The notes under the pieces: generated by a model
Told to the model about the DNA's origin: nothing
The model's input: the letters and a program-made list of their open reading frames with translations, nothing else
Database searches by the model: none
Made by a program: the position numbers and the translations under genes
Shown here: piece by piece, positions 193 to 59,960 of the stretch
Position numbering within the stretch: the first letter of the stretch is position 1
Layout of the letters: every line of letters begins with the position of its first letter
Assembly (NCBI GenBank): GCA_964533715.1
Contig: CAZHNI010000002.1
Span: forward strand, 46,496-110,495
Direction of reading: 5' to 3'
Source of the DNA: an uncultured Gammaproteobacteria bacterium
Lineage (GTDB): Bacteria > Patescibacteriota > Patescibacteriia > Magasanikbacterales > GWA2-37-8
Length of the DNA stretch: 64,000 nt

Positions 193-275
193 GTTGGGTA
201 AGTACATTACATTGACTGAAAAAATCAAGTCTGTTAGGATGGGCCTACACCAGCCATCCCGGCTAGGAGGTGCAC

Positions 276-1121
276 ATGTCGGCAAGAAGCTTCGTGCGAA
301 TGCTGAAAGCGCAGTGGGTGCTGCGGAAGTTCGTCTGCGTCGGGCTCGATCCCGATCCGAGCAAGATCCCCGGCTACACCGAGCAGGCGGGGACCATGGC
401 GGTCCGCGGGTTCCTCGAGGAGATCATCCTGAGCACCCACGACCTCGTGGGCGCCTACAAGCCGAACCTGGCGTTCTTCGAGCAGTTCGGCCCCGAGGGT
501 CTCCAGCTTCTGGTCGAGATCTGTCAGCACATCCGGTCGGTGTGCCCGCAGGTTCCCATCATCCTCGACGCCAAGCGCGGTGACATCGGGAACACCAACG
601 AGGGGTATGCCCGCTTCCTGTTCGATCGGTGCTGCGGCGACGCGGTCACCGTCCACCCGTACCTGGGGCAGGAGGCGCTCGCGCCGTTCCTCGCCCGCAA
701 GGACAAGGGCGTCTTTGTCCTCTGCCGGACCTCGAACCCAGGCGCGGGCGAGTTCCAGGATTTTCTCGGTCCGGACGGCACGCCGCTGTACCTGCGCGTC
801 GCCAGGAACGTGGCCACGAGCTGGAACGCGAACAACAACTGCGGCCTGGTCACCGGCGCCACCTATCCCATCGAGATCGCGGCGGTGCGCGAGGTAGCGC
901 CGAACCTGCCGCTCCTCATCCCGGGCGTCGGCAAGCAGGGCGGCGATCTGGAGTCGGCCGTGAAGGCGGCCCTGGCCGCCGACGGCGAGGGCAACTTCCT
1001 GGTCAACGCCTCGCGCGACATTCTGTACGCCTCGAAGGGCGACGACTACGCCCGGGCGGCACGGGCTGCCACGCTGCGGCTCCACGGCGAGATCATCCGG
1101 CACCTCGGGCTCACGGACTGA
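276..1121 (+). CDS. pyrF: Orotidine 5'-phosphate decarboxylase, type 2 (long, actinobacterial-like form)
   Basis: Motifs GLDPDP, KPNLAFFE, ILDAKRGDIGNT, VTVHPYLG, VFVLCRTSNP and LIPGVGKQGG line up with type-2 OMP decarboxylases. AGGAGG sits 5 nt upstream of the ATG at 276 (the listed ORF starts at an in-frame GTG at 270). The gene is markedly GC-rich compared with its flanks. Confidence 0.85.
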   Translation: MSARSFVRMLKAQWVLRKFVCVGLDPDPSKIPGYTEQAGTMAVRGFLEEIILSTHDLVGAYKPNLAFFEQFGPEGLQLLVEICQHIRSVCPQVPIILDAKRGDIGNTNEGYARFLFDRCCGDAVTVHPYLGQEALAPFLARKDKGVFVLCRTSNPGAGEFQDFLGPDGTPLYLRVARNVATSWNANNNCGLVTGATYPIEIAAVREVAPNLPLLIPGVGKQGGDLESAVKAALAADGEGNFLVNASRDILYASKGDDYARAARAATLRLHGEIIRHLGLTD

Positions 1122-1180
1122 TTCACCCCCGTTCTTCCCGCGGCGCGCGCCGTACCTACGAATTCGTCCCATCATCGATT

Positions 1181-1253
1181 CAGTGGTGGCGGGGCGATCG
1201 CAAGGTCCCCCGCCACTGTTATGTCTACAAAACAAAAGTGGGCATAACAGTGG
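1181..1253. repeat. Two overlapping GC-rich hairpins after pyrF: GTGGCGGGG...CCCCCGCCAC, and the 11-bp inverted repeat CCACTGTTATG...CATAACAGTGG
   Basis: Inverted repeats read directly from the sequence. The second one resembles the ACTGTYAT termini of the palindromic elements at 5207 and 22173. Confidence 0.35.
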
Positions 1254-4242: not shown

Positions 4243-4450
4243 AGCTCATTTTATTTCTTTATACAACCCAGTGAGTTTGTTAAAAACTAATTCCGGAGTA
4301 CAAGTTACTAAAATCAACCCATCTTGATTTCATTAACTTTTAAAAAACAACCCTATCACTTTTATCACAATGTATTATGGTAAAAGTGACAGATCGGGTG
4401 GTTTTAATTCCCGAGCTATCATCGGGAGTTGATGCGGACGCCTCGGTGAC

Positions 4451-5059
4451 TTACTTGGGTGAGTGGACGGAGTGGTAGAGGGGGTGGCCGTAGACCGGAT
4501 AGCTGCCGGTCCCTTCGGCGGAGCAGGACGCGTAGCCGCCCCACTCGATGTAGAGGGCCGCGCCTGGGGGTGCCTCGTTCCAGTTCGTGCACACCACCTG
4601 GAAAGGAATCAGCTTGTCCTTTTCCAGGTGAAGCGGCGTGCTGCCTGGCATCCAGTAGCCAGAGTTGGGGCCGATTTGCTCGCCGATGGTGTCCCCCCCG
4701 CCGTAGCCAATTTCTCCGGTGGGGACTCCGTTCAGCCAGACCTCGATCCGGGGCACCCAGTTGCTGCGTTCATAGCCGAGCCACAGGGACACACCCTCAA
4801 GGTTGATCGGCTGGCAGTCGGCGCTGTCAGCGGCGTGCATGGCGCCGTTGATCAGCACCGCGACCGACTGAGACGCCGGCACCTCATCCGGCGGAGGGGT
4901 GGCCGGCTCAAAGACCGGGAAGCCCGGCACGATCATGTACTTGGCCGTCAGGGTGTACCCCGGGCGGGTTTCGGACAGCACCGGACCGCACTGTGGCTCC
5001 GGCCGATCGGCACCGCAACTAGCCGCGAGCAGCAGAGACAAAACAACCAGTTGGCGCAT
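4451..5059 (-). CDS. High-GC lipoprotein of unknown function
   Basis: Lipobox LLLAASCGA. RBS GAAAGGAAG 6 nt upstream of the ATG. GC-rich codon usage unlike the flanks. The antisense ORFs 4459-4806 and 4463-5110 are judged spurious. Confidence 0.7.
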   Translation of the reverse strand: MRQLVVLSLLLAASCGADRPEPQCGPVLSETRPGYTLTAKYMIVPGFPVFEPATPPPDEVPASQSVAVLINGAMHAADSADCQPINLEGVSLWLGYERSNWVPRIEVWLNGVPTGEIGYGGGDTIGEQIGPNSGYWMPGSTPLHLEKDKLIPFQVVCTNWNEAPPGAALYIEWGGYASCSAEGTGSYPVYGHPLYHSVHSPK

Positions 5060-10566: not shown

Positions 10567-10612
10567 GGAAGAGCTAAAGTGTAACACTTTTGTTTTTTTT
10601 ACGTCTTCTAAA

Positions 10613-11170: not shown

Positions 11171-11172
11171 AA

Positions 11173-16505: not shown

Positions 16506-16557
16506 GCCAATGTAGTGGTTTAGCAGTAACGTTCGTTTATCGGTACACAACCGATAC

Positions 16558-16590
16558 AACCCCCGCCGCAATGGCGGGGGTTGTTTTATT
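16558..16590 (+). terminator. Intrinsic terminator (CCCCCGCC-gcaat-GGCGGGGG followed by TTGTTTT)
   Basis: Perfect 8-bp GC stem plus a T-run immediately after the giant surface-protein gene. Confidence 0.7.
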
Positions 16591-19903: not shown

Positions 19904-19960
19904 ACTAAGGTTGTCCCAAGGCTTGTCCCCATTTCCGGCTCTAAGCCGGAGGAGGTTCCC

Positions 19961-20746
19961 ATGTACCAGCAGATCATCCGCATCGCCGCCCTCGTCTTCG
20001 CGCTTTTCGTCCTCAACTCCGCCCCGGCCTCGGCCAAGAAGCCGGCCCCGGTCGCCGAGATCGAGAGTCCCGACCTCTCCCTCGCGAAGGTCCGTTTCAA
20101 GACCGGCGAAAAGAAGTACGAGGCCGAGGACTACGCCGGCGCCCTCAAGGAGTTCGAGGGCGCGAAGTTCCTGCAGCCCAAGCGCATCGAGCTCGATTAC
20201 AACATCGCGCGCTGCCACGATCGGCTGGGCAACTGGGAGCAGGCGGTGAAGTTCTACACCGCCTACGCCGACACGAAGCCGAAGGACGAGAAGGAGGTGA
20301 GGGAGCGTATCGCGATCCTCAAGGAGAGGCTCGCGGCGAAGCCCCTCACCACCCCCGCCGTTGCCGGCACCCAGCCCGCTCCGCCCGCCCTGGCTCCCGC
20401 CCCCGCGACGCGGACTGACGGTGGCGTCACGCCCGCGGCTCCCGCCACCCCCTACGCCGGCAGCAAGCCGAACCTCAACCTGCCGGCCCCCGCCCCGGCC
20501 CCGCCCGCCGCGACTGTCCCGCTCGTTCCGACGACCCAGCCCGTGGCCCCCACGTCGACCAGCCCGCCCTTCTACAAGAAGTGGTGGTTCTGGACGGCCG
20601 TGGGCGCCGCCGCGCTCGTCGCGGTCGGCGTCGGCATCGGCGTCGGAGCTTCGCGGGAAACCACCTATTCCCAGACCCGCCCGGACCTGGGGACCGTTCA
20701 CTTCAACCTCAACCTCTTTCCCACCCCCGACACGGGGGGGAGGTGA
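19961..20746 (+). CDS. High-GC secreted TPR-like / proline-rich protein with a C-terminal TM helix
   Basis: RBS GGAGGAGG. Signal peptide IAALVFALFVLNSAPASA. Long Pro/Ala-rich linker. TM helix WWFWTAVGAAALVAVGVGIGVG. GC-rich. Confidence 0.65.
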   Translation: MYQQIIRIAALVFALFVLNSAPASAKKPAPVAEIESPDLSLAKVRFKTGEKKYEAEDYAGALKEFEGAKFLQPKRIELDYNIARCHDRLGNWEQAVKFYTAYADTKPKDEKEVRERIAILKERLAAKPLTTPAVAGTQPAPPALAPAPATRTDGGVTPAAPATPYAGSKPNLNLPAPAPAPPAATVPLVPTTQPVAPTSTSPPFYKKWWFWTAVGAAALVAVGVGIGVGASRETTYSQTRPDLGTVHFNLNLFPTPDTGGR

Positions 20747-20749
20747 CCC

Positions 20750-22006
20750 ATGCGCCAGACCCTCTTCGCCTTGATGGTCGCCGCCCTCCTCGCGGGGTGC
20801 GGCGCCGACATGCGCCCGTGCCCCAAGGGCGCGGTCCGTATCCACATGCAGTTCGACCAGGTCGTCCGTGATCGTGGGTACGCCGTCACGGCGACCCTCA
20901 CGATCGATGGGGTGTCGGTCCAGACCCCCTTCGACCCCAGCATCAACGGGGATGCGGAAGGGAATATGGACTTCGTCTTCACCCATGGCTACCCGGCGAT
21001 CGGTGCAGAGGCGCAGATCGACCTGGTCGTGCGTCGCAACAGCGACATCGTCGGCGAGGGGCACGCAACCTTCGAGATCACCGAAGGGTGCACCTACGTC
21101 GTCGTCCCGGTGACCGCTTCGGTGGCACCTGAGGACGGCGGCACTGATCTCGCGCGGCTCGACGGCGGCGCTGACCTGTCTCGGCCGGACCTCGCCAGTG
21201 GCGACGGTTCGGTCGACCAGGCCACCCCGCCTGACCTCACGACGCCCCCCGACCTGACGCGCCCCCCCGGCGACCTCACCGTTCCGCCCCCTGACCTCAC
21301 CGTCGCGGGGGACATGGCGCGGCTCCCGGACGCGGCCCTCCCCGACCTGACCACCGCCCCGCCTGACCTCACGACGCCCCCCGACCTGACGCGCCCCCCG
21401 GACCTCGTGGCCACGCCCGATCTGGTTCTCGCCTGCAATCTCGACGCCGACTGTGGCAGCAAGACCGGTGGTGCCTGCAAGAACGGCACCTGCCAGCCCC
21501 CTGCATGCACCGACGGCCTCAAGAACCAGGACGAGACTGACGTCGACTGCGGCGGCGCCAAGTGCGTGCCGTGCGTGCCCACCAAGGCGTGTATCAAGGA
21601 CGCCGATTGCATCATTCCGTGGTGCAACCCCAGCACCAAGAGGTGCGGCAACATGGTCGGTACGGTCTTCATCGGATCGGAGGGCGAGAAAATTGACCTG
21701 AACAACCCGGCGAACAACCCGCCGCCCGTGTGGAGCTGCCTCGACGCCTGCGCCAAGAAGTTCGGTGCCGGTACCTACCGCTGCTCCACCGTGCTCGGCT
21801 CCGTCAACGGGCTGAGCTGGTCGCAGTGCTACGGCGACGGGCAGCACTGCTCCCCTGGTGGAGAGGTGTCCGAGAGCTACAAACTCGGCACCACCTACTA
21901 CTGCCCAGGGGCGCCGGGCTGCGCCTGCTCGGCGTGGGTCGACTACCAGAACAGCGGTGGTTCGGCCTGCGCCAACGCGGGCGCCAAGTCCTACTGCTTC
22001 AAGTAG
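20750..22006 (+). CDS. High-GC lipoprotein with PPDLT(T/R)P repeats and a Cys-rich C-terminal domain
   Basis: Lipobox LLAGCGA. RBS GGGAGG overlaps the upstream stop. Repeated TPPDLTTPPDLTRPP. About 30 Cys in the C-terminal 190 aa (CxxGxCxxxxC patterns). The antisense ORF 19874-22150 is rejected. Confidence 0.7.
   Translation: MRQTLFALMVAALLAGCGADMRPCPKGAVRIHMQFDQVVRDRGYAVTATLTIDGVSVQTPFDPSINGDAEGNMDFVFTHGYPAIGAEAQIDLVVRRNSDIVGEGHATFEITEGCTYVVVPVTASVAPEDGGTDLARLDGGADLSRPDLASGDGSVDQATPPDLTTPPDLTRPPGDLTVPPPDLTVAGDMARLPDAALPDLTTAPPDLTTPPDLTRPPDLVATPDLVLACNLDADCGSKTGGACKNGTCQPPACTDGLKNQDETDVDCGGAKCVPCVPTKACIKDADCIIPWCNPSTKRCGNMVGTVFIGSEGEKIDLNNPANNPPPVWSCLDACAKKFGAGTYRCSTVLGSVNGLSWSQCYGDGQHCSPGGEVSESYKLGTTYYCPGAPGCACSAWVDYQNSGGSACANAGAKSYCFK
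21226..21398 (+). repeat. Two copies of a ~43-bp direct repeat (CCCCGCCTGACCTCACGACGCCCCCCGACCTGACGCGCCCCCC) encoding the PPDLTTPPDLTRPP motif
   Basis: Identical DNA blocks at 21226-21268 and 21356-21398. Confidence 0.6.
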
Positions 22007-22011
22007 ACCCC

Positions 22012-22057
22012 CGCCAGAGGGCGGAGCCCACTTCGGTGGTGCTCCGCCCTCGGCGGA
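22012..22057 (+). other. GC-rich hairpin (GCCAGAGGGCGGAGC...GCTCCGCCCTCGGCGG) at the 3' end of the high-GC islet
   Basis: Near-perfect 16-bp inverted repeat with no T-run after it. Confidence 0.4.
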
Positions 22058-22140
22058 TCTAACCTCGCGGTTGCCTACGGCGACCGCTTCTCTCTTGTAC
22101 TCAAGATTAGTTAAATCGTGGTTACAAGTATAGAAAAAAT

Positions 22141-22172: not shown

Positions 22173-22330
22173 ATTAAGTTTGGTTAATAACTGTCATTCC
22201 GACTGAGGAGCTCGCGCGACGAGTGGAGGAATCCCTTGGTTCGTTAAATGGCGATTTTGGTAAAAGGGATTTCTCGACTAGGCCTCCGGCCTCGCTCGAA
22301 ATGACAGTTTTTCATTGAGCTATTTTTGTT
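22173..22330. repeat. ~150-bp imperfect palindromic (MITE-like) element, copy B, homologous to 5207-5375
   Basis: Termini AACTGTCATTCCGACTGAGG / CTCGCTCGAAATGACAGTT, inner GGAATCCCTT / AAGGGATTTC, internal hairpin CTCGcgcgaCGAG. Shares TGTCATYC, GTGRAGGA-TC and GAAATGACAGTT with copy A. The left flank ATTAAGTTTGG resembles copy A's CTTAAGCTTTG. Confidence 0.55.
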
Positions 22331-50057: not shown

Positions 50058-51790
50058 GAAAAAATTTTATATTTATTATGGGCGCTCTTTTGGTTGGCGT
50101 CGTTTCTATTCTACCCCAAATTATTCCAGTTTTGCATTTGGGCAATGAGTATAAAGGCATCCCTTTTATATACACCGCTAACGAAGACACCTACCTTGCC
50201 AGAATTAGAGAAGTCATTGACGGGCACCCGTTAGTTGGGTCGGCTTTTTTTTATGAATATAAAAATTGGCGCCCAATTGTTCCGGCAATCGGAGAAAACT
50301 TATATGCAATTCCAACCTTATTGTTTTCTGCGCCCCTGCTTGGCGTAGTTACGGCTAGTAAATTTCTGCTCCCAGCCGGTCTATTTATCCTGGCGTCTCT
50401 TTTAATTCTGCGTTTAAGCACCGACCCACAATCAAAGTGGTCCAAAGTTAATGCGTTTGTGGGTGCTCTTCTCATTACTTTGGGCTATGATATCTTTGAT
50501 TACCAACATTTTTTTAAGCTGGTTACTAATCCGGTAGATGCTTTTAGCCTCTCTGTGTGGACTAGGCCGATTAACCCGATATTGGGGGCAATTTTTTTAC
50601 TAATTTTTTTGTTGCTCATCTTAAAAATAATAGAACAAAGGAAAATAATTTATATTATTCCGGCCGCCGTAGTGTGGGCGCTGTCAGTGGGGTATATATT
50701 CAGCTGGACGCTTATTCTGGCAATTGTTGGTCTCTTTATTTTGCTATTCATAATAAAGAAAGATTTCGTCCTTGTTCGTCAGCTAATCTTACTTGTTTTG
50801 CTTTGGTTCGTGTTAACTTTTCCGTATTGGTACAGTTTGTTGGGTGCTTTAGGTAATTCGGTTGGGGGGGTGGCTGCTGCTTCTCGAAATGGAATTTTTT
50901 TAACTCATCGCCCCATTATCAATAAAATTGTTTTGGCATTTACCTTTATTTTTTTGGGATTTTCCGGTTATTTTCGATGGTATCAGAAAGGAAAAAATTC
51001 GCCGGAAACTTGGTGGTATGTTTTAGAGGTATTCGTAGCCGCCTCCTGGGCGGTTTTCAATCAGCAAATTATCACCGGTCGAACCGTTTGGTATCATCAT
51101 TACGTGCAATACACGATTCCGCTTGGTATTGTTGTGGTTATGGTTATCTTTAATAATTGGGTTAGACCGATTTTATTTAAGGTTTGGGCTGGGTTTATTG
51201 TCAGTATCATTCTGTTTGTCAGTTTTTATAATTTTATAGATTTGCGCGCGATAAATTATCGTTATTTAGATTTTCAAAATTTGCAAAGTTACGCCCCGCT
51301 TTTTTTGTGGATTAATAAAAACGCCGCAAGAGAATGTGTAATATTAAATCAAGACACCCCTGTTAGATTTGAATTGTTGGTCTCGGCGTTTACCGGCTGT
51401 AATAGTTATGCCCCTTCATGGGTTTTTGATGGTGTCCCTGCGGAGAGAATCAGACATGATTATTTAGTTATGCTTAGGCTTAGGGGTATTAACCCAGAAT
51501 CAGTTAAACAATATCTAATCGATCACGAAACTGAAGTTCGCTCATACTTTTTTAAAGACTGGGATCAGATGTTTGGCCGAGGACCAGACCCGTACATAAC
51601 AGAAGTTATTGACCGTTTGTCGAGCGATTATGCAAGTTTTGTTAAGGGTAATTTTGTCGATGAATTAAAAAAGTATAAGTTGGATTATATACTTTTTGTC
51701 GGGCCACCATCTCCTGATCTGACGAAATCCCTGCCAGGAATTATGCCGGCGTTTCAATATGATAATTTTTATCTCTATAGATTTAATTGA
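50042..51790 (+). CDS. Polytopic integral membrane protein of unknown function (possible GT-C-fold glycosyltransferase)
   Basis: 582 aa, more than 12 predicted TM helices, and a soluble C-terminal region. Confidence 0.5.
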   Translation: MSIFIRKNFIFIMGALLVGVVSILPQIIPVLHLGNEYKGIPFIYTANEDTYLARIREVIDGHPLVGSAFFYEYKNWRPIVPAIGENLYAIPTLLFSAPLLGVVTASKFLLPAGLFILASLLILRLSTDPQSKWSKVNAFVGALLITLGYDIFDYQHFFKLVTNPVDAFSLSVWTRPINPILGAIFLLIFLLLILKIIEQRKIIYIIPAAVVWALSVGYIFSWTLILAIVGLFILLFIIKKDFVLVRQLILLVLLWFVLTFPYWYSLLGALGNSVGGVAAASRNGIFLTHRPIINKIVLAFTFIFLGFSGYFRWYQKGKNSPETWWYVLEVFVAASWAVFNQQIITGRTVWYHHYVQYTIPLGIVVVMVIFNNWVRPILFKVWAGFIVSIILFVSFYNFIDLRAINYRYLDFQNLQSYAPLFLWINKNAARECVILNQDTPVRFELLVSAFTGCNSYAPSWVFDGVPAERIRHDYLVMLRLRGINPESVKQYLIDHETEVRSYFFKDWDQMFGRGPDPYITEVIDRLSSDYASFVKGNFVDELKKYKLDYILFVGPPSPDLTKSLPGIMPAFQYDNFYLYRFN

Positions 51791-51796
51791 AGCAGT

Positions 51797-52456
51797 ATGA
51801 ACATATTTATAAAAGAATTTTTAAAATATAAAGAAAAAATATTTCCCGACAGAAAGTTCCGTCGCGCCAGAATTTGGTCCAACCAAGAACTAAAAAAAAT
51901 CGCCAATCTTTTTGAGGGAGACATAATAAATGTGAGTGGGTGGAAAGACAGTGACAAACGGGATGGTTTTTATCGGGACTATTTTCCCAAAGCCAAGTCT
52001 TATTGGCTTTCTAACTTTTCCGGTCCATCTGGTTTCCAGGGCAATAATCCAAATGAAATTTTTCTTGATTTGGAAAAAGACTTAGACAATGATTTTGTGG
52101 GGAAATTTGACGTGGTATTTAACCACACCACTCTTGAGCATGTATACAATTTTCAAAAAGCTTTTCAGAATTTATGTCATTTAAGCAAGGACGTAGTCAT
52201 TATTGTTCTGCCTTTTTTGCAACAATTACATGCGGTTAAGGGTGATTATGAAGACTATTGGAGATTTAGCCCGTATGCTATAGAAAAAATGATGAAAGAA
52301 AACGGATTGGCGTTATTGTATATGTCAGCCAATAACAAAAAGTCCGAGAGTGTTTACGTGTTTGCTGTTGGGACAAAAAACCCGCTCCGGTGGGCGGGAA
52401 AAATACAAAACGGTAATCAGGATTTTTTTAATAATTTAGGCGATAAAGCCTTTTAA
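51797..52456 (+). CDS. Putative SAM-dependent methyltransferase-like protein
   Basis: Motifs FDVVFNHTTLEHVYNFQKAF and VVIIVLPF, resembling type-11 methyltransferase motifs. Confidence 0.5.
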   Translation: MNIFIKEFLKYKEKIFPDRKFRRARIWSNQELKKIANLFEGDIINVSGWKDSDKRDGFYRDYFPKAKSYWLSNFSGPSGFQGNNPNEIFLDLEKDLDNDFVGKFDVVFNHTTLEHVYNFQKAFQNLCHLSKDVVIIVLPFLQQLHAVKGDYEDYWRFSPYAIEKMMKENGLALLYMSANNKKSESVYVFAVGTKNPLRWAGKIQNGNQDFFNNLGDKAF

Positions 52457-52457
52457 T

Positions 52458-53957
52458 TTAGGCAAGATTGATTCTTTTGGCAATCAGATCAACCAACGGT
52501 TCTATTCCTGTCAAAATTTTGTTGAAATCACGTTCGTGGTACCAAAGGTGCACAATATCAACCGGTACAGTGTCGCGCTTGAGCGCCGCAATAAACTGCA
52601 CCAATTCGTCATGGTTATAAGAGAAGTTTTTTAATTGGTGCTCCACTGTTTGTGGTAGCTGAGCAATGTTTTCACAGTTTTTTACCATCGATAGACAATT
52701 ATAAAAAGTATTGCCAAATGTGATGGGCGGTTTTTTATAGAGCAACGCTTCCCATGCGGCAGTTCCGGTTATGGTAACGATCAGTTTTGCATTTTTAATT
52801 AATTCAAAGCTTTTTATGTTCGGTCGAATTAATTTTACATTCGGCATTTTCTTCAACTCTTTATAAAATGTTTTAGTACGATAGCCAACCATGGCTGGGT
52901 GTTCTTTTACGTACAATTTAAAATTAAGCGGCAACGATCGGGCCAGCTGGCGAACGTAAAACAATTGGTTGGTAGCGTGTTGTGCGTAGAGCAATAAAAA
53001 AATTTCCGGTTCAACGGCCAATGGAAAGTAGACAAAATCTTCTCCTGGCGCAACCTCATCGTATAAATCTTCAAAACCAACCAACATTCTAATTTTTCGT
53101 TTCATTCTGTCTAGTAAATGGTTCCAGGGGCTAATGCTAGTATAGCCTTTCCAGTTTTTGGAATAATATTGTTTGAACATGAAAGCAACCCCACCGAGTG
53201 ATTTTAGCCAGTTTTTTGGATGCAAGAATTTAAATTGACGCAATCTATTGATTGGTTGGCGATCCGGTGAATCCCCCTGGTGGTAGGGGCGGGGAGTCTC
53301 GGCGAATTGGGTGATGTATGAATTAATTTCTTCGACTTCAGTTTCTTTAAGTTTTATTTCCCCGCTTTGTATTTTGTGCCAGTTTTCCTCGGCCCAGTAG
53401 TATCGCTTAAAATCGTTTGTTATCATGTAGCTGTCAGGAAAGCGTGATAATTCGCCAAAAATGACCCTGATGCCTCTTTTTTTGGCAACTTCATAAAGCA
53501 CGTAACTGCTCATGTTATTTATAACGGCGAAGAAAATGGCGTCCGGTTTTTCCCTTTCAATAAAATTTATGACCTCTCTAATCGTCACCTGGAGGAGTTT
53601 CATTAAATCCTCGTGACTGTATTGGGTTTGGTCGTATGGGTATTCCCTTAAAAGTTGGCCATGCATTAATACTCTGTCTACCAGAAGATAGGGCCACAAA
53701 AAAGGTATCCCATATTCAGTTTCCATTTTTTTTAAATATTCTATATCCAACTTTTCTACTTTATAGGACTCATGCAGTTTCTCATCGAGTAAAAGAGAAG
53801 TATAGGCAATATCTCTTTGATTTTTTAAAAAATTATAACTATAACGCGTAGAAACAAGCGCACAAAAATCATGCACCCCATATTTTTTTTTAAATTGTAT
53901 TGCCATGGCGTGTCCAACGCGAACAAAGCTACGTTGCATGTGGAAGCAGATTTTCAT
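52458..53957 (-). CDS. Polysaccharide-biosynthesis protein of uncertain family (capsule-polysaccharide-biosynthesis / KpsS-LpsZ-like or glycosyl-phosphate transferase-like)
   Basis: 499 aa soluble protein. Motifs VKEHPAMVGYRTKTFYKELKK and IVTITGTAAWEALLYKKP resemble capsule-synthesis family proteins. The assignment is tentative. Confidence 0.3.
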   Translation of the reverse strand: MKICFHMQRSFVRVGHAMAIQFKKKYGVHDFCALVSTRYSYNFLKNQRDIAYTSLLLDEKLHESYKVEKLDIEYLKKMETEYGIPFLWPYLLVDRVLMHGQLLREYPYDQTQYSHEDLMKLLQVTIREVINFIEREKPDAIFFAVINNMSSYVLYEVAKKRGIRVIFGELSRFPDSYMITNDFKRYYWAEENWHKIQSGEIKLKETEVEEINSYITQFAETPRPYHQGDSPDRQPINRLRQFKFLHPKNWLKSLGGVAFMFKQYYSKNWKGYTSISPWNHLLDRMKRKIRMLVGFEDLYDEVAPGEDFVYFPLAVEPEIFLLLYAQHATNQLFYVRQLARSLPLNFKLYVKEHPAMVGYRTKTFYKELKKMPNVKLIRPNIKSFELIKNAKLIVTITGTAAWEALLYKKPPITFGNTFYNCLSMVKNCENIAQLPQTVEHQLKNFSYNHDELVQFIAALKRDTVPVDIVHLWYHERDFNKILTGIEPLVDLIAKRINLA

Positions 53958-54061
53958 ATTTTTAATTTAACTAAAATTTTTGATATCTTAGCAATTTCCT
54001 AATAAAATTGCAAACTCTCGCTTAGAACGTATAACCGAAAATTTTTTCGCTTTAAGTTACA

Positions 54062-54898
54062 TTAGCGAATTAATAATAAAAGTCCCAAGATAAGGCAAAC
54101 TCCTAGGATTAGTTTTTTTAAAATGTGCTCTTCCCCAAAATATAATTTACCAGAGATTACGGCTAGCACTAATGCTGAGGCACGTATAGCAGATAAAATT
54201 ATGGCAGCAGGTGCGAATTTATAAGCAAAGCTTGTTAGAATTGCTGCTCCAACTTGGGTGCTGGATTGAATTAAAAAAAGTGGTTTAAATAAATTATACG
54301 AAAAATTCTGTTGTTTCTTCAGAAATGTGCCAATAAAAAAATAAATTGTTAACCCACCATACGCTATAGTTTGTTCTGCAATTACAGAATTAAAGTGAGT
54401 AATATTATATTTATATAAAGAAATAGTGCATGCCGCATTAATAGCCGAAATAATAATAAGGCCCGCTCCTGTACGGCTAAATTCTTGTTTAATAAAAGCG
54501 ATTATAAGCGCCAGTAGGATTAAAATAATGCCCATTATTTGTCGATTAGATATAGAATATCCTAGCGTTAAGTCTATAATTAGAACAAGAGGGATGGCTG
54601 TGCTGCGTAGAAAACTAAACGTACTGCGATCACTTTTAACAAGCGCTAAAATTGCTAAATGTGCCTGGGTGATTTCTAAAATTAAGCGAATTGCTACAAA
54701 TGGCAGGGAAGCGGCAACAAAGACAAAACCGCCGGGTTGGATTATTGCTAAAAGTATGAAAACAGCAAGTGTCGCCGAGTTTTGGATAAACCCAAGCGTG
54801 TAGATACTTTCTCGGCCGGCTGCTACTGCCCATTTCCCAATAGAACCGGATAATTCATCGCCGAGTGATCCGAGAGCTGCAAGTAAAACTCCAAACAT
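54062..54898 (-). CDS. DMT-superfamily (EamA-like) membrane transporter
   Basis: 278 aa, about 10 TM helices, with a two-repeat architecture. Confidence 0.55.
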   Translation of the reverse strand: MFGVLLAALGSLGDELSGSIGKWAVAAGRESIYTLGFIQNSATLAVFILLAIIQPGGFVFVAASLPFVAIRLILEITQAHLAILALVKSDRSTFSFLRSTAIPLVLIIDLTLGYSISNRQIMGIILILLALIIAFIKQEFSRTGAGLIIISAINAACTISLYKYNITHFNSVIAEQTIAYGGLTIYFFIGTFLKKQQNFSYNLFKPLFLIQSSTQVGAAILTSFAYKFAPAAIILSAIRASALVLAVISGKLYFGEEHILKKLILGVCLILGLLLLIR

Positions 54899-54959
54899 AG
54901 TACTTTTGAGTATATCACAATTTTAAAAAATTAGCTGTAGATGCCCTAATCAGTCTTTA

Positions 54960-54998
54960 AATCAAAACCGTCCAGATGATTTCTGGACGGTTTTGATT
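54960..54998. terminator. Perfect 15-16-bp hairpin (ATCAAAACCGTCCAG-atgattt-CTGGACGGTTTTGAT) between two minus-strand genes, at the edge of the high-GC islet
   Basis: Inverted repeat read directly. Likely the terminator of the high-GC gene ending at 55058. Confidence 0.5.
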
Positions 54999-55057
54999 AG
55001 TGCTCGAGGGGGGTGGAAACCTCAGGGGGATGTCGAGCGGCATCGTGAGGGGGGGCT

Positions 55058-55894
55058 CTAGAAGATCTGGAGGTCGAGGAGGGCGCGGAGCGCCAGGGCG
55101 CGGCACATGTTGCCGCCCTTGGTCTGCATCCGCACCACCCGGTTCAGCGTCTGGAAGGCGCCGGCCGGGTTGTCGAGTCGGAGCTGGGCCTTGGCCGCGA
55201 AGAGGAGCGCGGTCCCGATGGCGTCCCCGTACTCGCCGGTGAGCGCGGTCGCCTCGGCGATCTCGATGGCGCTGGTGAAGTCGCCGGCGTCGTAGAGCCT
55301 GGCCACCTGGGCCATCATCCAGAACGGGCGGAACAGGTCGTGGTAGCGGTTGTCGGCCGCCTCCATCGCCTGCATCGCCGCCAGGTACGACGAGCGGCCC
55401 TGGTACTGGTTGATGTTGGCGAGCATGCTCGCCTCGACGACGTGGGCCGGGATGTTCCCCTCGACCCACTCGAGCGCACGAGGGGACTCGTCGCCCGCGA
55501 GCGCCTGCTGCGCCACTGCGGCGGCGGCGGCGAGCCGGTTGAAGGTGTGGCCCAGCTCGTCGCCCCTGACCACGGCGTTGTTGAACGCCGAGACCGTGGC
55601 GAGGAACGCCTCGATCGCGTAGCTGGTGTCGGTCTCGCGCGTTGCCGGGGGCGAGCGGTACTGCTCGGCGGCCAGCAGGTGCAGGTTGATCAGCGCACCG
55701 TAGCCGCCGCCGTCGCGCGTCATGATGCGGGCGTTGTAGCCGGCGCGGAGCGCGAGCGCCGTGCGCTCGACCCCGTCCGGCAGCTCCGCGATCTCCGCCA
55801 TGACCTCACGCAGGAGGACGGCGGCTTCCCCGAATCCCTCGTTGGTCTGGCGCAGCGCGTACACCCGGTCGATTTTTTTTCCGATTTCTTCCAT
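55058..55894 (-). CDS. High-GC all-helical hypothetical protein (278 aa)
   Basis: RBS AAGGAGGG 8 nt upstream of the ATG at 55894 (MEEIGKKIDRVY). GC-rich throughout. The plus-strand antisense ORFs 55340-55939 and 55000-55242 are judged spurious. Confidence 0.6.
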   Translation of the reverse strand: MEEIGKKIDRVYALRQTNEGFGEAAVLLREVMAEIAELPDGVERTALALRAGYNARIMTRDGGGYGALINLHLLAAEQYRSPPATRETDTSYAIEAFLATVSAFNNAVVRGDELGHTFNRLAAAAAVAQQALAGDESPRALEWVEGNIPAHVVEASMLANINQYQGRSSYLAAMQAMEAADNRYHDLFRPFWMMAQVARLYDAGDFTSAIEIAEATALTGEYGDAIGTALLFAAKAQLRLDNPAGAFQTLNRVVRMQTKGGNMCRALALRALLDLQIF

Positions 55895-56044
55895 GTGCTT
55901 GCCCTCCTTGTGGGCGTTTTGGGTCAAAATTTTGCTTAGCAAAAATTAAAGCACCCCTCATTTTATCATATAATAAGGTTTTTGTCAATTCGCGATCATC
56001 GATTCGTTTAAAATTTTTAACCCGCTAGTTTTTCTTGATAAATT

Positions 56045-56053
56045 TGGTATAAT
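56045..56053 (+). promoter_or_regulatory. Extended -10 element TGGTATAAT
   Basis: TGnTATAAT match 46 nt upstream of the ATG at 56099. Confidence 0.4.
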
Positions 56054-56098
56054 ATGGTACTCTTAACTCAGATTAGATTGAAAGAAATTACCTTAAAT

Positions 56099-56821
56099 AT
56101 GAAAATTCTTGGTATTATTCCAGCGCGTGGCGGCAGTAAAGGTATTAAAAATAAGAATATTAGACAGTTTTGTGGAAGGCCATTAATCTCGTACGTTATT
56201 GATTGCGCCAAAAAATCAAAATACATTCAAAAAACCATAGTTTCTACCGAATCAGAGGAAATTGTCAAAGTTGCTAGGCGTTATGGCGCAGAAGTTCCAT
56301 TTTTGCGCCCTCCCCAATTTGCGCAAGATAAAAGCAGGGTTTCTGATGCGATAATTCATTTGTTAAGCAAGCTAAAAACGGATTTCGATTATATACCAGA
56401 TATTATCGTTTTGCTTCAGACAACTTCTCCTCTTAGAACCCCTCAAGATATCGACGGCGCTATTAAGTTATTAATCGATAAAAAAGCGGATTCGGTGGTG
56501 AGTGTGTGTGCTACAGAGCAACTGGTTTTTACTAAAGATTCGGAGAATCGGCTCAAAAATTTAATTACAAAAAAAGAATTCCTGCGTTCTAATAATCGAC
56601 AGGAACTGCCTCGTACTTTTAAACTGGATGGTTCCATGGTGTATGCCATTAAAACAAAAATTTTTCTAAAGTATAAATCTTTTTTAGCCGGTAAATTGGT
56701 GGGTTATGAAATTCCACGTTGGAGAAGTGTTGATTTAGACGAACCTGAGGATTTTGTGGTAGGAGAGTTGATTTTTTCTCAATTTAAAAAATTGGCACAT
56801 AAAATTGAGCATTTTAAGTAA
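56099..56821 (+). CDS. Acylneuraminate (CMP-nonulosonate / CMP-sugar) cytidylyltransferase family protein, copy 1
   Basis: ILGIIPARGGSKGIKNKN and LLQTTSPLR motifs. The real start is the ATG at 56099. Confidence 0.8.
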   Translation: MKILGIIPARGGSKGIKNKNIRQFCGRPLISYVIDCAKKSKYIQKTIVSTESEEIVKVARRYGAEVPFLRPPQFAQDKSRVSDAIIHLLSKLKTDFDYIPDIIVLLQTTSPLRTPQDIDGAIKLLIDKKADSVVSVCATEQLVFTKDSENRLKNLITKKEFLRSNNRQELPRTFKLDGSMVYAIKTKIFLKYKSFLAGKLVGYEIPRWRSVDLDEPEDFVVGELIFSQFKKLAHKIEHFK

Positions 56822-56831
56822 TTAAAATCAT

Positions 56832-58148
56832 ATGTCTTCCAAACCACACATTAAAGAATTGCTAAAAAAGCGGCACGATCTAATTCCGGGTGCTGCTCAT
56901 ACCTACTCCAAAGGCGACGACCAATTTCCAGCCAACGCCCCCAAAGCCATGCTAAAAGGCAAGGGCGCTTATGTGTGGGGAGATGATGGTAAAAAATATC
57001 TTGATTGGTGCATGGGGCTTAGATCAGTATCGCTTGGACATGGTTATTCAACAGTTGTTAAAGCGGTGTCCAAAATAATCAAAGACGGAACTAACTACGG
57101 TCGTCCCCATATTTCTGAGTTTGCCTTGGCTAACAAAATTACAAAAATTATTCCATATGCGGAAATGGTAAAATTTGCTAAAAACGGCTCTACCGTTACC
57201 ACCGCCGCCACCAAACTGTCTAGGGCCTTTACTGGTAGAAAATATATCGCTGTGTGTAGTAGCCATCCTTTTTTTAGCTATGACGATTGGTTTATTGGTA
57301 CTACCCAATGCGACGCCGGAATTCCCGAGGAGATTAAACAATTGACGCTAACTTTCAAATACAACGATATCGACAGCGTTGAAAAATTGTTTGCGGAACA
57401 TCCCAAAGAAATAGCCTGCGTTATAATGGAGGTTGTAACCACCGACGAGCCGCAAAATAATTTTTTGCAAAAAGTTCAGGATATAACCAAGCGCAATGGC
57501 GCCGTGTTTATTTTGGATGAGATGATTACCGGTTTCCGTTTTGATTTGCAGGGCGCCACTAAATTATATGGGTTAAAGCCTGATTTAATAACATATGGCA
57601 AAGGCATCGCCAATGGTTTTTCTTTGGCAGTGTTAGCGGGCCGCAAAGACATTATGGAATTAGGTGGGCTCAAACACAAAAAAGAAAGGGTGTTTCTTAT
57701 TTCCACTACTCACGGCGCGGAAACTTCCGCCCTAGCAGCGGCCAGCGAAACAATCCAAGAAATGAAAAAGAAAAGAATCCAACAACATTATTGGAAGATG
57801 GGAGGTAAGCTACGCAAAGGCCTGGCAGACTTAATAAAAAAACATGGTTTGTCGAAGAATTTGGATTTAATTGGGTTTGCCCCAAATTTGAGTTTGAATT
57901 TTAAGGACAACTCTGGCACTGTGTCGTTTGTTTATAAATCAATTTTTTTACAGGAAATAATCAAGCGCGGTATTCTCTTTCAGGGTTATTTTGCAATTTC
58001 TTTTTCCCATAAAGAAGCTGAAATTAAACACACGATAAAAGTTTTTGACGAAGCTATGAAAACTTTTAAACAGATAATTTCAACAGGTAACCCAGAAAAA
58101 TATTTGTTAGGCGAGGCGGTTAAGCCGGTCTTCAGAAAATATAATTAA
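56832..58148 (+). CDS. Class-III PLP-dependent aminotransferase (glutamate-1-semialdehyde 2,1-aminomutase-like)
   Basis: Motifs YVWGDDGKKYLDWCMG, FILDEMITGFRF and YGKGIANGFSLAVLAGR (PLP-Lys region). Confidence 0.75.
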   Translation: MSSKPHIKELLKKRHDLIPGAAHTYSKGDDQFPANAPKAMLKGKGAYVWGDDGKKYLDWCMGLRSVSLGHGYSTVVKAVSKIIKDGTNYGRPHISEFALANKITKIIPYAEMVKFAKNGSTVTTAATKLSRAFTGRKYIAVCSSHPFFSYDDWFIGTTQCDAGIPEEIKQLTLTFKYNDIDSVEKLFAEHPKEIACVIMEVVTTDEPQNNFLQKVQDITKRNGAVFILDEMITGFRFDLQGATKLYGLKPDLITYGKGIANGFSLAVLAGRKDIMELGGLKHKKERVFLISTTHGAETSALAAASETIQEMKKKRIQQHYWKMGGKLRKGLADLIKKHGLSKNLDLIGFAPNLSLNFKDNSGTVSFVYKSIFLQEIIKRGILFQGYFAISFSHKEAEIKHTIKVFDEAMKTFKQIISTGNPEKYLLGEAVKPVFRKYN

Positions 58149-58155
58149 TTGAGGT

Positions 58156-58956
58156 ATGCAAAAAGGTGTGGTAAGGGTCGCATTGGCACAAATGAACGTT
58201 GAATGGGAAGACAAAACAAAAAATCAAACAACGTGTGAAGAACTGGTTGCTAAAGCCGCTAACCGCGGGGTTGATATTGTGATATTTCCGGAAATGACTT
58301 TGACCGGATTCTCAATGAACGTTGCTAAGGTCGGGGAGTTAAACAATCGGAGCCAAACCACAAGATTTTTTGCAGATTTGGCAAGTAAATACAAACTGGG
58401 TATAGTTTTTGGTGTGGTAGAGAAAACACTCTCGGCTAAGGGGGCCAATACGGCAATCTTTGTAGATAGATCTGCTCGCGTCAAGGCGCGTTATCAAAAA
58501 ATTCATCCCTTCAGTTTTTCTGGAGAGCACAAGCATTTTATTTCGGGTGAAAAACTATCTTTTTTTACAGTCAACGGACTAAGATTTGTTTTGGCAATCT
58601 GTTATGATCTTAGATTCCCCGGAATGTTTGAAGCCATATCTAGATATAAACCGGATGCCACGATAGTGATTGCTAACTGGCCACAACAACGAATTAGTCA
58701 TTGGAAGACGCTTCTTTGTGCCCGTTCGCTGGATTTACAAAGTTATGTCATCGGAGTTAACCGGCTAGGGGATAGCCCCGTTGGAAAATATAACGGAGAA
58801 TCAACCGTGTATGATCCCGGAGGTAAAGCAATACTAAAATTAAACAATAAGGCGGGGGTTGGATATGTAGATTTGAAAAAGGCCGATGTTTTAGAGGCTC
58901 GAAGAAAATTTCCTTCTGTTAAAGACAAGAAGTTTTCTGTATATAAGAATCTGTAA
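58156..58956 (+). CDS. Carbon-nitrogen hydrolase (nitrilase superfamily)
   Basis: Motifs VALAQMN, DIVIFPEMTLTGF, KIHPF and AICYDLRFP (catalytic Cys). Confidence 0.75.
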   Translation: MQKGVVRVALAQMNVEWEDKTKNQTTCEELVAKAANRGVDIVIFPEMTLTGFSMNVAKVGELNNRSQTTRFFADLASKYKLGIVFGVVEKTLSAKGANTAIFVDRSARVKARYQKIHPFSFSGEHKHFISGEKLSFFTVNGLRFVLAICYDLRFPGMFEAISRYKPDATIVIANWPQQRISHWKTLLCARSLDLQSYVIGVNRLGDSPVGKYNGESTVYDPGGKAILKLNNKAGVGYVDLKKADVLEARRKFPSVKDKKFSVYKNL

Positions 58957-58958
58957 TT

Positions 58959-59960
58959 TTGGTTCTATTATTTATGAATAAAAGGCTGGTTACTATTGTT
59001 ACATACCACTACGTTCGCGATTTAAAGAATTCTCGCTACCCGGCAATAAAGGGGCTGACAGTCTCTGATTTTAAAGAGCAGCTTTCTTATATTAAACGTC
59101 ATTATGAGGTTGTCTCCATGGAGTCGATCCTCAATGCCGTTGTTTACGGTGGTGATTTGCCGACCAATTCACTATTGCTTACCTTTGATGATGGTTATGC
59201 CGACCACTTTAACACGGTATTTCCTATTTTGGATGACCTTGGTTTGCAAGGAAGTTTTTTTCCTCCATTTAAGGCGGTATTAGAGCACGAAGTTTTGGGT
59301 GTAAATAAGGTACATTTTATTTTGGCCACAGTATTAGATCGTAAAAAATTGTTGCGCGAAATTTTTTCAGAATTAAACGTGTATCGTAAAAGTAATAAAA
59401 TAGAAAGCAACCAGTATTTTGTTGACATGATCACAAAAGATCATCGCTTTGATGACCGGGAAACTCTGGTTGTAAAACGGTTGTTGCAGAGGGAAATTCC
59501 TGAAAAGATTCGGGGTGGCATCGTCGATAAGCTATTTAAAAAATATGTCACCTCTGACGAAGCATCCTTTGCCAGTGAACTTTATGTAACTATGGATCAG
59601 TTGCGGTGTATGAAAAAAAATAATATGTATATTGGTGGCCACGGATATAGCCACTCCTGGTTGGGGCGTCTAAATCCGATCGAGCAAAAAAAAGAAGTTA
59701 AACTTATGATTAAAAATCTTAAGGCTGTCGGCGCAGATACAAAACGCTGGGTGATGTGCTTCCCGCACGCCTCATATAACGATTCTCTCATCCAAATATT
59801 AAAAGAAAACGGCTGTGTTGTGGGTTTGGATGTGGTTCAAAGAGTCGCCAACTTGGATAGCGACAACACCTTTCTTTTACCCAGGCTAGATACCAACGAT
59901 TTGCCGCACAAAGCCTCGGCTAAACAGGATAAATGGATAAAAAACTATGATGTTTGCTAA
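58959..59960 (+). CDS. Polysaccharide deacetylase (NodB / CE4 family)
   Basis: LLTFDDGYADHFNTVFPIL and HGYSH motifs. Confidence 0.75.
   Translation: MVLLFMNKRLVTIVTYHYVRDLKNSRYPAIKGLTVSDFKEQLSYIKRHYEVVSMESILNAVVYGGDLPTNSLLLTFDDGYADHFNTVFPILDDLGLQGSFFPPFKAVLEHEVLGVNKVHFILATVLDRKKLLREIFSELNVYRKSNKIESNQYFVDMITKDHRFDDRETLVVKRLLQREIPEKIRGGIVDKLFKKYVTSDEASFASELYVTMDQLRCMKKNNMYIGGHGYSHSWLGRLNPIEQKKEVKLMIKNLKAVGADTKRWVMCFPHASYNDSLIQILKENGCVVGLDVVQRVANLDSDNTFLLPRLDTNDLPHKASAKQDKWIKNYDVC

Follow-up and report, generated by a model that had tools for sequence, protein, structure and literature searches.

The window, by which we mean the whole 64-kb stretch of DNA that was analysed, holds a GC-rich gene that was probably acquired recently by horizontal transfer from a bacterial donor of ~70% GC and wired into the expression signals of its host. 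This gene, here called islet 4, is one of four compositionally foreign, gene-sized islets in the window (Table 1), and it is best read as a case of horizontal transfer, not of a new kind of gene-capture system.

A foreign gene in a surface-glycan locus

Judged from its sequence, the host belongs to the Patescibacteria and is related to Magasanikbacteria, with a MetK that is 77% identical to those of Magasanikiibacteriota and Patescibacteria MAGs and synteny that spans 5422–16505. Patescibacteria are ultra-small and mostly uncultured, and many are thought to be dependent on other bacteria; the present host is described as an ultra-small groundwater-type bacterium. Host GC is ~41% (42.4% across the whole window), intergenic DNA makes up 7.8% of host sequence, and most of the window is a single glycan-biosynthesis cluster of ~40 kb, for a surface glycan or sugar coat. 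Islet 4 occupies the divergent spacer between an EamA-type transporter gene and an operon headed by a CMP-sugar cytidylyltransferase gene, which is followed by genes for an aminotransferase, a nitrilase-type hydrolase and a deacetylase.

Table 1. Features of islet 4 and its surroundings, and the four islets of the window
Feature	Position	Strand	Details
Sigma-70-like promoter (putative)	55960..55988	-	TTGACA, 17 nt, TAAAAT, TG upstream; consensus match; in host-like AT-rich DNA
Predicted 5′ UTR	55895..55953	-	transcription start placed from the -10 position
Islet 4 foreign gene	55058..55894	-	278 aa, predicted cytoplasmic TPR-like alpha-solenoid; 69.7% GC, GC3 0.95
Islet 4 GC-rich 3′ untranslated tail, foreign	55002..55057	-	56 nt past the stop codon; change-point at 55002
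Perfect 17-bp hairpin	54960..54998	.	5-nt loop; host-like composition
EamA-like (DMT) transporter, host gene downstream of islet 4	54062..54898	-	weak EamA match; GC3 0.27
CMP-sugar cytidylyltransferase, host gene divergent from islet 4	56054..56821	+	Pfam scan
Islet 1	248..1214	+	pyrF (subfamily 2 OMP decarboxylase); GC3 0.91; own AGGAGG; GC-rich terminator hairpin
Islet 2	4410..5059	-	202-aa predicted lipoprotein; GC3 0.82; no family match
Islet 3	19945..22087	+	TPR + transmembrane protein; Cys-rich lipoprotein with PPDLT repeats; GC3 0.92, 0.88
Islet 4	55002-55894	-	single TPR-like gene; GC3 0.95

The first-pass annotation of this DNA had described a GC-rich gene on the minus strand at this position, and the gene is present as described, with a GC3 of 0.95 against 0.27–0.44 across 25 host genes and 0.27–0.31 in its immediate neighbours. 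GC content is 58% or more in the 100-nt windows between 54981 and 55920 (68.6% GC overall), and a third-order Markov model places sharp change-points around a foreign segment at 55002–55872 (~69% GC). Although the mechanical ORF reaches a TTG at 55942, the ORF that starts at an ATG covers 55894–55058 (-). The first eight codons after this ATG are AT-rich (5/8 end in A or T, vs 9/269 in the remainder, p = 8e-6), a pattern that agrees with a start-proximal bias of the native gene as well as with adaptation in the recipient. The tetranucleotide correlation of islet 4 with the host is -0.13 to -0.34 in raw form and 0.17 after base-composition normalisation. Codon and oligonucleotide usage are both unlike those of the host, as in a horizontally acquired gene.

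Likewise upheld was the proposal that four islets share one pattern: all of them carry intact genes with a Shine-Dalgarno sequence, a GC3 of 0.82–0.95 and structured 3′ regions (z -4.2 to -9.4). A tetranucleotide signature shared with the host had been set beforehand as the outcome that would speak against the islets being foreign, and the islets do not share it. The raw correlations are 0.66–0.89 among islets and 0.86–0.98 among host segments, vs -0.12 to -0.38 between islets and host (0.08–0.17 when normalised), and the normalised signature of islets 1, 3 and 4 combined correlates at 0.72–0.84 with unrelated environmental genomes of 64–72% GC and at 0.10 with the host. Comparable ORFs number five in the window and none in 1.08 Mb of other low-GC loci. 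The islets lie 3–33 kb apart, each downstream of a host-type promoter-like site, and their foreign sequence extends at most ~30 nt ahead of the start codon (perhaps up to ~80 nt in islet 2) and 40–95 nt past the stop. All four are intergenic, which under random placement has p ~4e-5.

The contents of the islets differ. The pyrF of islet 1 is 52–58% identical to its best matches, which include CPR and Chloroflexota proteins. Islet 3, a two-gene unit that terminates at its own GC-rich terminators, has domain-level matches that include Nannocystis and Labilithrix proteins, and counterparts of its gene pair lie ~1 kb apart in a native contig of 64.5% GC, with an outer-membrane efflux protein (OEP) alongside.

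Expression signals and the border hairpin

Upstream of islet 4 lies a putative sigma-70-like promoter that matches the consensus at 11 of 12 positions, 66 nt ahead of the start codon, with the joint top score in 50000–60000. The strong ribosome-binding site reported earlier is also present, as AAGGAGGG at 55909–55902 (-), 7 nt ahead of the ATG.

Beyond the 3′ end, the first-pass annotation had noted a perfect inverted repeat of 15 bp. The repeat is indeed perfect, with 100% complementary arms, but the arms are 17 nt long: AATCAAAACCGTCCAGA at 54960–54976 and TCTGGACGGTTTTGATT at 54982–54998. Its core is CCGTCCAGA/TCTGGACGG, flanked by AATCAAAA and TTTTGATT, and the 9-bp core stem, written as CCGUCCAGA/UCUGGACGG, runs into UUUUGAUUU at 59 nt past the stop codon, an arrangement that is symmetric on the opposite strand. 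This is the longest perfect hairpin of the 64 kb, where just three others reach 10 bp; it folds with z-scores of -4.8 and -6.1, and none of 200 shuffled sequences folds equally well. As had been claimed, the hairpin is low-GC, host-like sequence at the islet border, and it stops 3 nt short of the composition change-point.

By its sequence, this is best taken for an ordinary intrinsic (Rho-independent) terminator of the bidirectional type. It is a stable stem-loop with a U-rich tract, located after a gene, and it resembles bidirectional Rho-independent terminators in its 9-bp GC-containing core, 5-nt loop and T-tract, in the complementary A-tract that lengthens the stem to 17 bp, and in its position between two genes; we found no sequence feature that sets it apart from them. 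Similar host terminators stand at other operon ends (e.g. 16556–16584), and no copy of the hairpin was found in 168 other loci or in viral contigs. Since the hairpin is located upstream of the EamA gene, that gene needs a promoter of its own.

The islet 4 protein and its relatives

The islet 4 protein is predicted to be a TPR-like alpha-solenoid. An AlphaFold2 model built from a 7-sequence alignment has 13 helices and a pLDDT of 91.7 (59 for a single-sequence model), and its best fold matches in the PDB by Foldseek are the TPR arrays of RapI, NprR and phage phi3T Rap (TM 0.48–0.55, E ~1e-2). The model resembles these RRNPP-type solenoids in its all-helical TPR-like array and similar size, however, the protein is without their N-terminal HTH or phosphatase domain and is 11–15% identical to them, and no extra domain is found within its 278 aa. 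Pfam returned only a sub-threshold TPR_16 match (17.8 bits vs a cutoff of 32.7), and the homologs described below match TPR models with E ~1e-5 at best (TPR_12, in 2 of 7 members). NCBIfam has no family for the protein, a sequence profile search of the PDB gave nothing meaningful, and the anti-phage defence models of PADLOC have zero matches among the islet proteins and homologs.

A word-indexed homology search returned no matches to the islet 4 protein, and an exhaustive HMMER scan of 1.84 billion representatives recovered just four true homologs, which are ~22–28% identical and align over nearly the full length. The three that could be placed are all on Patescibacteria or CPR-like contigs, and two of them adjoin glycan genes. 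In three genomes the homolog is a GC3 outlier (0.90 vs 0.61–0.80, 0.79 vs 0.46–0.56 and 0.66 vs 0.28–0.41). One of these genomes is Ca. Magasanikbacteria GW2011_GWA2_56_11, where the oligonucleotide signature of the homolog correlates at r = 0.67 with the islets of the window and at 0.12 with its own genome. Viral contigs hold no relatives of four family members, and a plasmid collection gave no DNA match.

At loci L082 and L081/L169, as in the window, the family member adjoins an EamA-family gene; homolog P0003, from a Magasanikbacteria MAG, is followed by one. We rejected orthology of a conserved module of helical protein and EamA transporter because the EamA proteins have no significant similarity. 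The islet 4 protein is possibly a protein- or peptide-binding scaffold, and the genes beside its homologs in two other genomes suggest a possible link with glycan or envelope functions.

Origin of the islets

We propose that a gene-sized piece of ~0.9 kb from a bacterium of ~70% GC, comprising a complete ORF, its Shine-Dalgarno region and a 3′ tail of 56 nt, was integrated into the EamA/CMP-sugar cytidylyltransferase divergent spacer inside the surface-glycan cluster. Entry would have been by DNA uptake followed by illegitimate recombination, with selection retaining only those inserts that are intergenic, complete and expressible. The gene would now be an autonomous transcription unit driven by the host-type sigma-70 promoter at 55988–55960, with the strong ribosome-binding site and AT-rich first codons favouring initiation and the 17-bp hairpin predicted to act as a bidirectional Rho-independent terminator that insulates the downstream EamA gene. 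Islets 1–3 would be independent events of the same kind. Import at the DNA level is favoured by islets 1 and 3, which retain their own GC-rich terminator hairpins, and by the native 64.5% GC counterpart of the islet 3 pair. Against a recent import of islet 4, its closest proteins are ~22–28% identical and the placeable ones are Patescibacteria-like, not from a high-GC genome. Four unameliorated islets per 64 kb is also an unusually high density for natural transfer, and tight gene-sized boundaries are unlike random illegitimate recombination, unless strong selection or deletion shaped them. To look for an empty site, MetK was searched against genome contigs and the flanking aminotransferase against metagenome contigs; in the related loci the flanking proteins are 61–77% identical (aminotransferase 61–73%) and different genes stand in the corresponding slot, and no informative empty site was found.

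Genomic islands and individually transferred genes are reported to be common in Patescibacteria, reaching up to 13% of genome length, and competence has been proposed as a DNA uptake route (PMC12455944). The transfers detected in the phylum are reported to be mostly internal to it and mostly older, with gene-exchange pairs that are 3.9–34.5% divergent (Gios et al. 2025, PMC12455944). The islets share with these cases the recipient phylum, compositionally detectable inserts and streamlined genomes, and MAG nzgw350 (locus L001), which is closely related to the host, belongs to that dataset. They differ in that islet 4 has a GC3 of 0.95 vs ~0.37, that the inserts are of single-gene size and without mobility genes, that there are four in 64 kb, and that islet 3 at least suggests a high-GC diderm donor.

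A cassette-like or site-specific acquisition, as the first-pass annotation had suggested, is not supported by the window. A Pfam scan of 49 ORFs (44 host and 5 islet) detected no integrase, transposase or recombinase family, direct repeats across the islet borders do not exceed chance, no target-site duplications were found, and we saw no sequence motif common to the four islet hairpins or borders. There is no tRNA near islet 4, and a tRNA-like 3′ end occurs near islet 1 alone, without an att-like repeat. At gathering thresholds Rfam finds nothing in the window, and its matches around islet 4 do not rise above chance. We rejected a tRNA/tmRNA-targeting integrative genomic island, for which islet 4 has no integrase, tRNA site or direct repeats. 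An IS200/IS605-type or PATE hairpin element, a reading prompted by the junction TTGAT, was rejected because the hairpin is on one side only and neither TnpA nor TnpB is present among the scanned ORFs. Under a scenario in which a dedicated recombinase, of an integron-like or hairpin-targeting kind, inserts promoterless cassettes and uses the border hairpins as its recombination sites, the gene-sized units with their own Shine-Dalgarno and 3′-side hairpin are accounted for; like integron cassettes, the islets are promoterless ORFs with a short 5′ leader and a structured element past the stop. However, there is no intI among the scanned ORFs and no array, and the insertion sites are scattered. 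attC sites are imperfect stems with extrahelical bases, whereas the stem at islet 4 is perfectly paired and has the flanks of a terminator. The core pattern RYYYAAC ... GTTRRRY is missing from the 220 nt that follow islets 1, 2 and 4; one match spans the right border of islet 3 (background 0.01 per 222 nt) but has no paired stem in the predicted fold. We give this scenario a very slim chance. Barely more credible to us is a capture process, as yet undescribed, in which the boundaries of genes or transcripts are recognised, together with a TPR-like family that Patescibacteria would have imported repeatedly from their high-GC partners. Each islet starts within ~0–30 nt of a start codon (perhaps up to ~80 nt in islet 2) and ends at or just past a hairpin of terminator type, which in islets 1 and 3 is that of the donor, an outline that resembles an mRNA or a cassette and not a random DNA fragment. 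The route could be reverse transcription of host-cell transcripts taken up by an epibiont, or hairpin-directed insertion at host terminators.

Deliberate or artefactual insertion, also raised by the first-pass annotation, is disfavoured, and we hold a chimeric metagenome assembly, wrong gap filling from a co-occurring high-GC organism or an in-silico insertion to be quite improbable. The extreme compositional contrast with sharp junctions, the four islets in 64 kb vs none in 1.08 Mb of other low-GC loci, and the lack of mobility genes and integration scars in the window would all suit an artefact. An exact-match look-up in public assemblies also returned no record for host or islet proteins, so the assembly has no corroboration from it. 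Yet all four insertion points fall within the small intergenic fraction of host sequence, each of the islets comprises a whole gene unit, oriented so that a promoter-like site of host type precedes it, and host sequence on both flanks requires two chimeric joins per islet and therefore eight in all. The AT-rich first codons of islet 4 also speak against an artefact, as do the same outlier pattern of its family in independently assembled public contigs and the distance of the islet proteins from public sequences, none of which they copy (best matches 28% identical for islet 4, 57% for islet 1 and 41% for islet 3). Exchange within Patescibacteria, from an accessory pool restricted to the phylum and carried by CPR lineages of high GC or by a high-GC virus or mobile element yet to be sampled, with no import from a non-CPR bacterium, is somewhat easier to entertain but still unlikely. 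It fits the placement of every placeable homolog, one of them in a named Magasanikbacteria MAG, the two homologs in glycan clusters, the recurrent EamA-family neighbours, the CPR proteins among the matches of pyrF and the predominance of within-phylum transfer (PMC12455944). Still, the family gene is a compositional outlier in every such genome, which makes each of them an implausible native home. Islet 3 suggests a Myxococcota-type diderm donor, the signature is similar across islets 1, 3 and 4, and no relative was found on viral contigs. A native gene, inherited vertically in Magasanikbacteria and GC-rich by gene-specific selection or biased gene conversion, could explain why a second Magasanikbacteria genome has the homolog in the same orientation to a gene of the EamA family, and likewise downstream of a divergent operon. 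This reading is already close to refuted: no gene-specific cause is known for the GC3 contrast with the neighbours, the high GC extends into the non-coding 3′ tail, four unrelated gene families in the window have the same anomaly, and neither the flanking EamA proteins nor the genes around them are orthologs across the two genomes.

Patescibacteria are already known to acquire genes horizontally, and current concepts are unchanged by recent acquisition of islet 4; the window adds a clean and unusually dense example. What stands out is the density of unameliorated gene-sized islets (four in 64 kb) together with the recurrent foreignness of the islet 4 family. The locus illustrates how a streamlined genome can domesticate foreign DNA, with a complete ORF placed between a resident promoter and a resident-style terminator. 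The family is foreign in all four genomes with examined context and lies twice in surface-glycan clusters; it is a candidate symbiont-host interaction factor. Genes of ~70% GC origin that are still unameliorated record, at the molecular level, with whom Patescibacteria exchange DNA. The islets could thereby indicate the partner organism, given the resemblance of islet 3 to diderm genes of Myxococcota type.

Composition and setting of the islets

Horizontal acquisition of islet 4 is supported. The four high-GC islets reported in the first-pass annotation were all recovered against a window mean of 42.4% GC (see table), and a change-point analysis, in which a third-order Markov model of the host was set against one of the islet core, placed the limits of islet 4 at 55002 to 55872. 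Its gene, which that annotation had described as GC-rich with its own ribosome-binding site, has a GC3 of 0.95 versus 0.27 to 0.44 in host genes (n = 25), and AAGGAGGG lies 7 nt 5′ of the ATG. Tetranucleotide profiles correlated among islets (r = 0.66–0.89) and among host segments (r = 0.86–0.98), whereas islet versus host was negative, and normalizing oligonucleotide usage for base composition gave r = 0.08–0.17 for islets versus host. A signature common to islets and host had been named beforehand as grounds for rejecting foreign origin, and the profiles point the other way. Normalized usage of islets 1, 3 and 4 combined reached r of up to 0.84 with unrelated environmental genomes of 64–72% GC, and no ORF of comparable composition occurred in 1.08 Mb of other low-GC loci. 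At the islets, foreign sequence extends at most ~30 nt upstream and 40–95 nt downstream, with the 3′ limits at hairpins.

Coordinates of the islets and of features in and around them
Feature	Position	Strand	Remark
Islet 1	~241-1260		within 64–69% GC (range of the four segments)
Islet 2	~4421-5100		within 64–69% GC (range of the four segments)
Islet 3	~19901-22140		within 64–69% GC (range of the four segments)
Islet 4	~54981-55920		within 64–69% GC (range of the four segments)
Islet 4 ORF	55894-55058	(-)	single intact ORF, 278 aa
Hairpin beyond islet 4 gene	54960-54976 / 54982-54998		arms 17 nt, loop 5 nt
EamA-like transporter gene	54898-54062	(-)	one flank of islet 4
Cytidylyltransferase operon	56054 onward	(+)	other flank of islet 4
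tRNA-like end	85-163		T-arm and acceptor end
pyrF	276-1121		islet 1
Composite hairpin	1198-1260		predicted fold
MITE-like element, two copies	5237-5346; 22191-22307		~110 nt
Host metK	6721-7953		
Host protein gene	12633-16505		1290 aa
Host hairpin	16556-16584		ends a host gene
AT-rich imperfect hairpin	19786-19902		117 nt

The host MetK is 77% identical to those of a Candidatus Magasanikiibacteriota MAG and a Patescibacteria MAG, and gene order is common to the window and these MAGs over 5422-16505. The 1290-aa host protein has no Pfam match and is 42–58% identical to counterparts in two related Patescibacteria MAGs. By Pfam annotation of 44 host ORFs, the window from ~16.6 kb to 63.5 kb is essentially one surface-glycan cluster, with many GT1, GT2 and GT4 enzymes, O-antigen-ligase-like and PMT_2 proteins, asparagine-synthase-like amidotransferases, methyltransferases, two CMP-sugar cytidylyltransferases, an aminotransferase, a deacetylase and an ABC exporter. 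Islet 4 occupies the divergent spacer between the EamA-like gene and the cytidylyltransferase operon.

Predicted expression signals of the islet 4 gene

Given a promoter-like site, an AT-rich ORF start and a hairpin, all predicted signals, the islet 4 gene appears to form a transcription unit that is self-contained and can be expressed. At 66 nt before the ATG, in AT-rich, host-like DNA, is the predicted promoter (TTGACA-17-TAAAAT, with TG upstream), and its 11/12 match is the joint best, with one other site, in its 10-kb region. A or T is the third base in 5/8 of the codons that directly follow the ATG, versus 9/269 in the remainder (p = 8e-6). Start-proximal codon bias is strongest in GC-rich genomes; the AT-rich codons may reflect this bias, or they may reflect adaptation after transfer.

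The hairpin, previously described as a perfect 15-bp repeat, is indeed perfectly complementary but has longer arms (see table), making it the longest perfect hairpin of the window. It lies 59 nt 3′ of the stop codon, and its region folds with z of -4.8 and -6.1, no shuffle being equally stable. The inner 9 bp are CCGUCCAGA/UCUGGACGG, with UUUUGAUUU after them and the complementary AAUCAAAA before them. A-tract, stem and T-tract in this order make up the classical layout of a bidirectional Rho-independent terminator, and the hairpin reads as an ordinary predicted example, in agreement with its initial description as a terminator. Hairpins of this type end other host genes, including that at 16556-16584. 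The islet 4 hairpin is unique, with no copy in the comparison loci or in viral contigs.

Beyond the hairpin, the EamA gene lacks a Shine-Dalgarno sequence (54899-54960). An extended -10-like motif, TGATATACT, stops ~12 nt upstream of its ATG, which suggests that this gene has its own leaderless or very short-leader transcript.

The islet 4 protein and its relatives

No Pfam, NCBIfam or PADLOC model matched the islet 4 protein above threshold, the sole family match being TPR_16 at 17.8 bits (cutoff 32.7). A word-indexed search of 5.8 billion proteins returned no matches, and HMMER, run exhaustively over 1.84 billion representatives, returned six: four true near-full-length relatives at ~22–28% identity (P0001, P0003, P0004 and P0006) and two generic TPR proteins. 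AlphaFold2, run on a seven-sequence alignment, confidently modeled a 13-helix solenoid (pLDDT 91.7, pTM 0.88), for which Foldseek against the PDB found TPR arrays only; the top TM-scores, to the quorum-sensing receptors Rap and NprR, were 0.48–0.55 with weak E-values of ~1e-2. On this predicted model, we call the protein a TPR-like scaffold and assign it to no named family.

The P0003 gene lies in Ca. Magasanikbacteria GW2011_GWA2_56_11 (locus L082, 6001-7008), within a NeuB/UDP-glucose-dehydrogenase glycan cluster, with a consensus promoter and divergent operon upstream and an EamA-family gene next downstream. It has 68.8% GC in a genome of ~58% GC, and its oligonucleotide signature correlates at r = 0.67 with the window islets versus r = 0.12 with the rest of its own genome. 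The genes for P0001 and for another relative, P0127, have as neighbors DegT, epimerase and GT2 genes as well as one for a large membrane protein with weak similarity to that at 50042-51790 of the window, and the P0006 gene sits among housekeeping genes on a 43% GC contig. In these three genomes, GC3 of the gene was 0.90 vs 0.61–0.80, 0.79 vs 0.46–0.56 and 0.66 vs 0.28–0.41. Because the TPR-like genes are GC3 outliers at every locus examined, the family appears to have been imported repeatedly, from lineages without representation in the databases searched. The EamA neighbors of the islet 4 gene and P0003 have no significant protein similarity to each other, and an orthologous module of two genes is therefore not proposed here.

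On the public contigs L169 (1-4100) and L081 (1-2934), five GC-elevated genes (GC3 0.66–0.80) form a block: a contig-edge partial ORF, an EamA-like gene, a 175-aa gene, the TPR-like homolog and, at 173 aa, a paralog of the 175-aa gene. Between the genes are AT-rich spacers, which carry promoters and terminators of host type, and the block adjoins glycan genes of 43–49% GC, an architecture like that of the window islets.

The other islets and the proposed route of acquisition

Import at the DNA level from bacteria of high GC also finds support in the other islets. Islet 1 carries a subfamily-2 pyrF whose best matches reach only 52–58% identity. Islet 3 has two genes, one for a Cys-rich protein with domains in common with Nannocystis and Labilithrix proteins; counterparts of both, separated by ~1 kb, occur on a contig of 64.5% GC together with a gene for an outer-membrane efflux protein, and a second contig, of 67% GC, carries the other top match and encodes LolA and a TonB-dependent receptor plug. 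Islets 1 and 3 keep their own GC-rich terminator hairpins at their 3′ edges.

Several further elements lie in or near the islets. The pyrF of islet 1 stands alone, while in the two closest relatives examined (L085 and L086) a pyrE-like phosphoribosyltransferase gene directly follows it. Islet 1 starts ~85 nt downstream of the tRNA-like end (GGTTCGAATCCCTTGGCGTGCACGCCA), which has a hairpin before and a terminator after it and may represent the 3′ part of a tmRNA gene truncated where the window begins; neither ARAGORN nor Rfam called it, and no att-like repeat of it was found near islet 1. At the right border, foreign GC-rich CAAGGTCCCC is predicted to pair with host-side GGGGATCTTG around an AT-rich inner hairpin, so that one long composite hairpin spans the junction. 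The palindromic MITE-like copies (termini AACTGTCATYCYGA...TCRGAATGACAGTT; DNA fold z -7.0 and -3.0) lie ~100–180 nt from islets 2 and 3, respectively, and their terminal 12-mer recurs in the CPR-like contig L081 (4949-4960). Directly upstream of islet 3, the AT-rich imperfect hairpin with GGAAATTGGAAATTGG repeats has a weak promoter-like site on one side and the foreign genes on the other.

The first-pass annotation had proposed cassette-like or site-specific acquisition, or else deliberate or artefactual insertion. The former is not supported. Pfam detected no integrase, transposase or other recombinase family among the 44 host ORFs; the attC core pattern is absent at islets 1, 2 and 4, and its one match at islet 3 lacks stem support; and no direct repeats over the islet borders exceeded chance. 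We found no evidence of a dedicated capture system. Chimeric assembly or deliberate insertion is quite unlikely, since all four islets fall in the 7.8% of host sequence that is intergenic (random placement, p ~4e-5) and are oriented behind promoter-like sites, eight junctions would have to coincide, and the TPR-like family shows the same outlier pattern in independent public assemblies.

The most economical account is that foreign DNA would have been taken up by the host and integrated illegitimately, with only intergenic, complete and expressible inserts retained. Uptake with illegitimate integration does not explain well, however, why the segments are so tightly gene-sized; that their boundaries reflect transcripts or cassettes has a low probability. 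Genomic islands and single-gene transfers are abundant in Patescibacteria, with competence proposed as a route (PMC12455944), and conjugation-related T4SS are widespread in the phylum (PMC12102498). The islets are a clean, unusually dense example of an already known phenomenon, and a notable side result is the small TPR-like family, whose members are foreign in all genomes with an examinable context.
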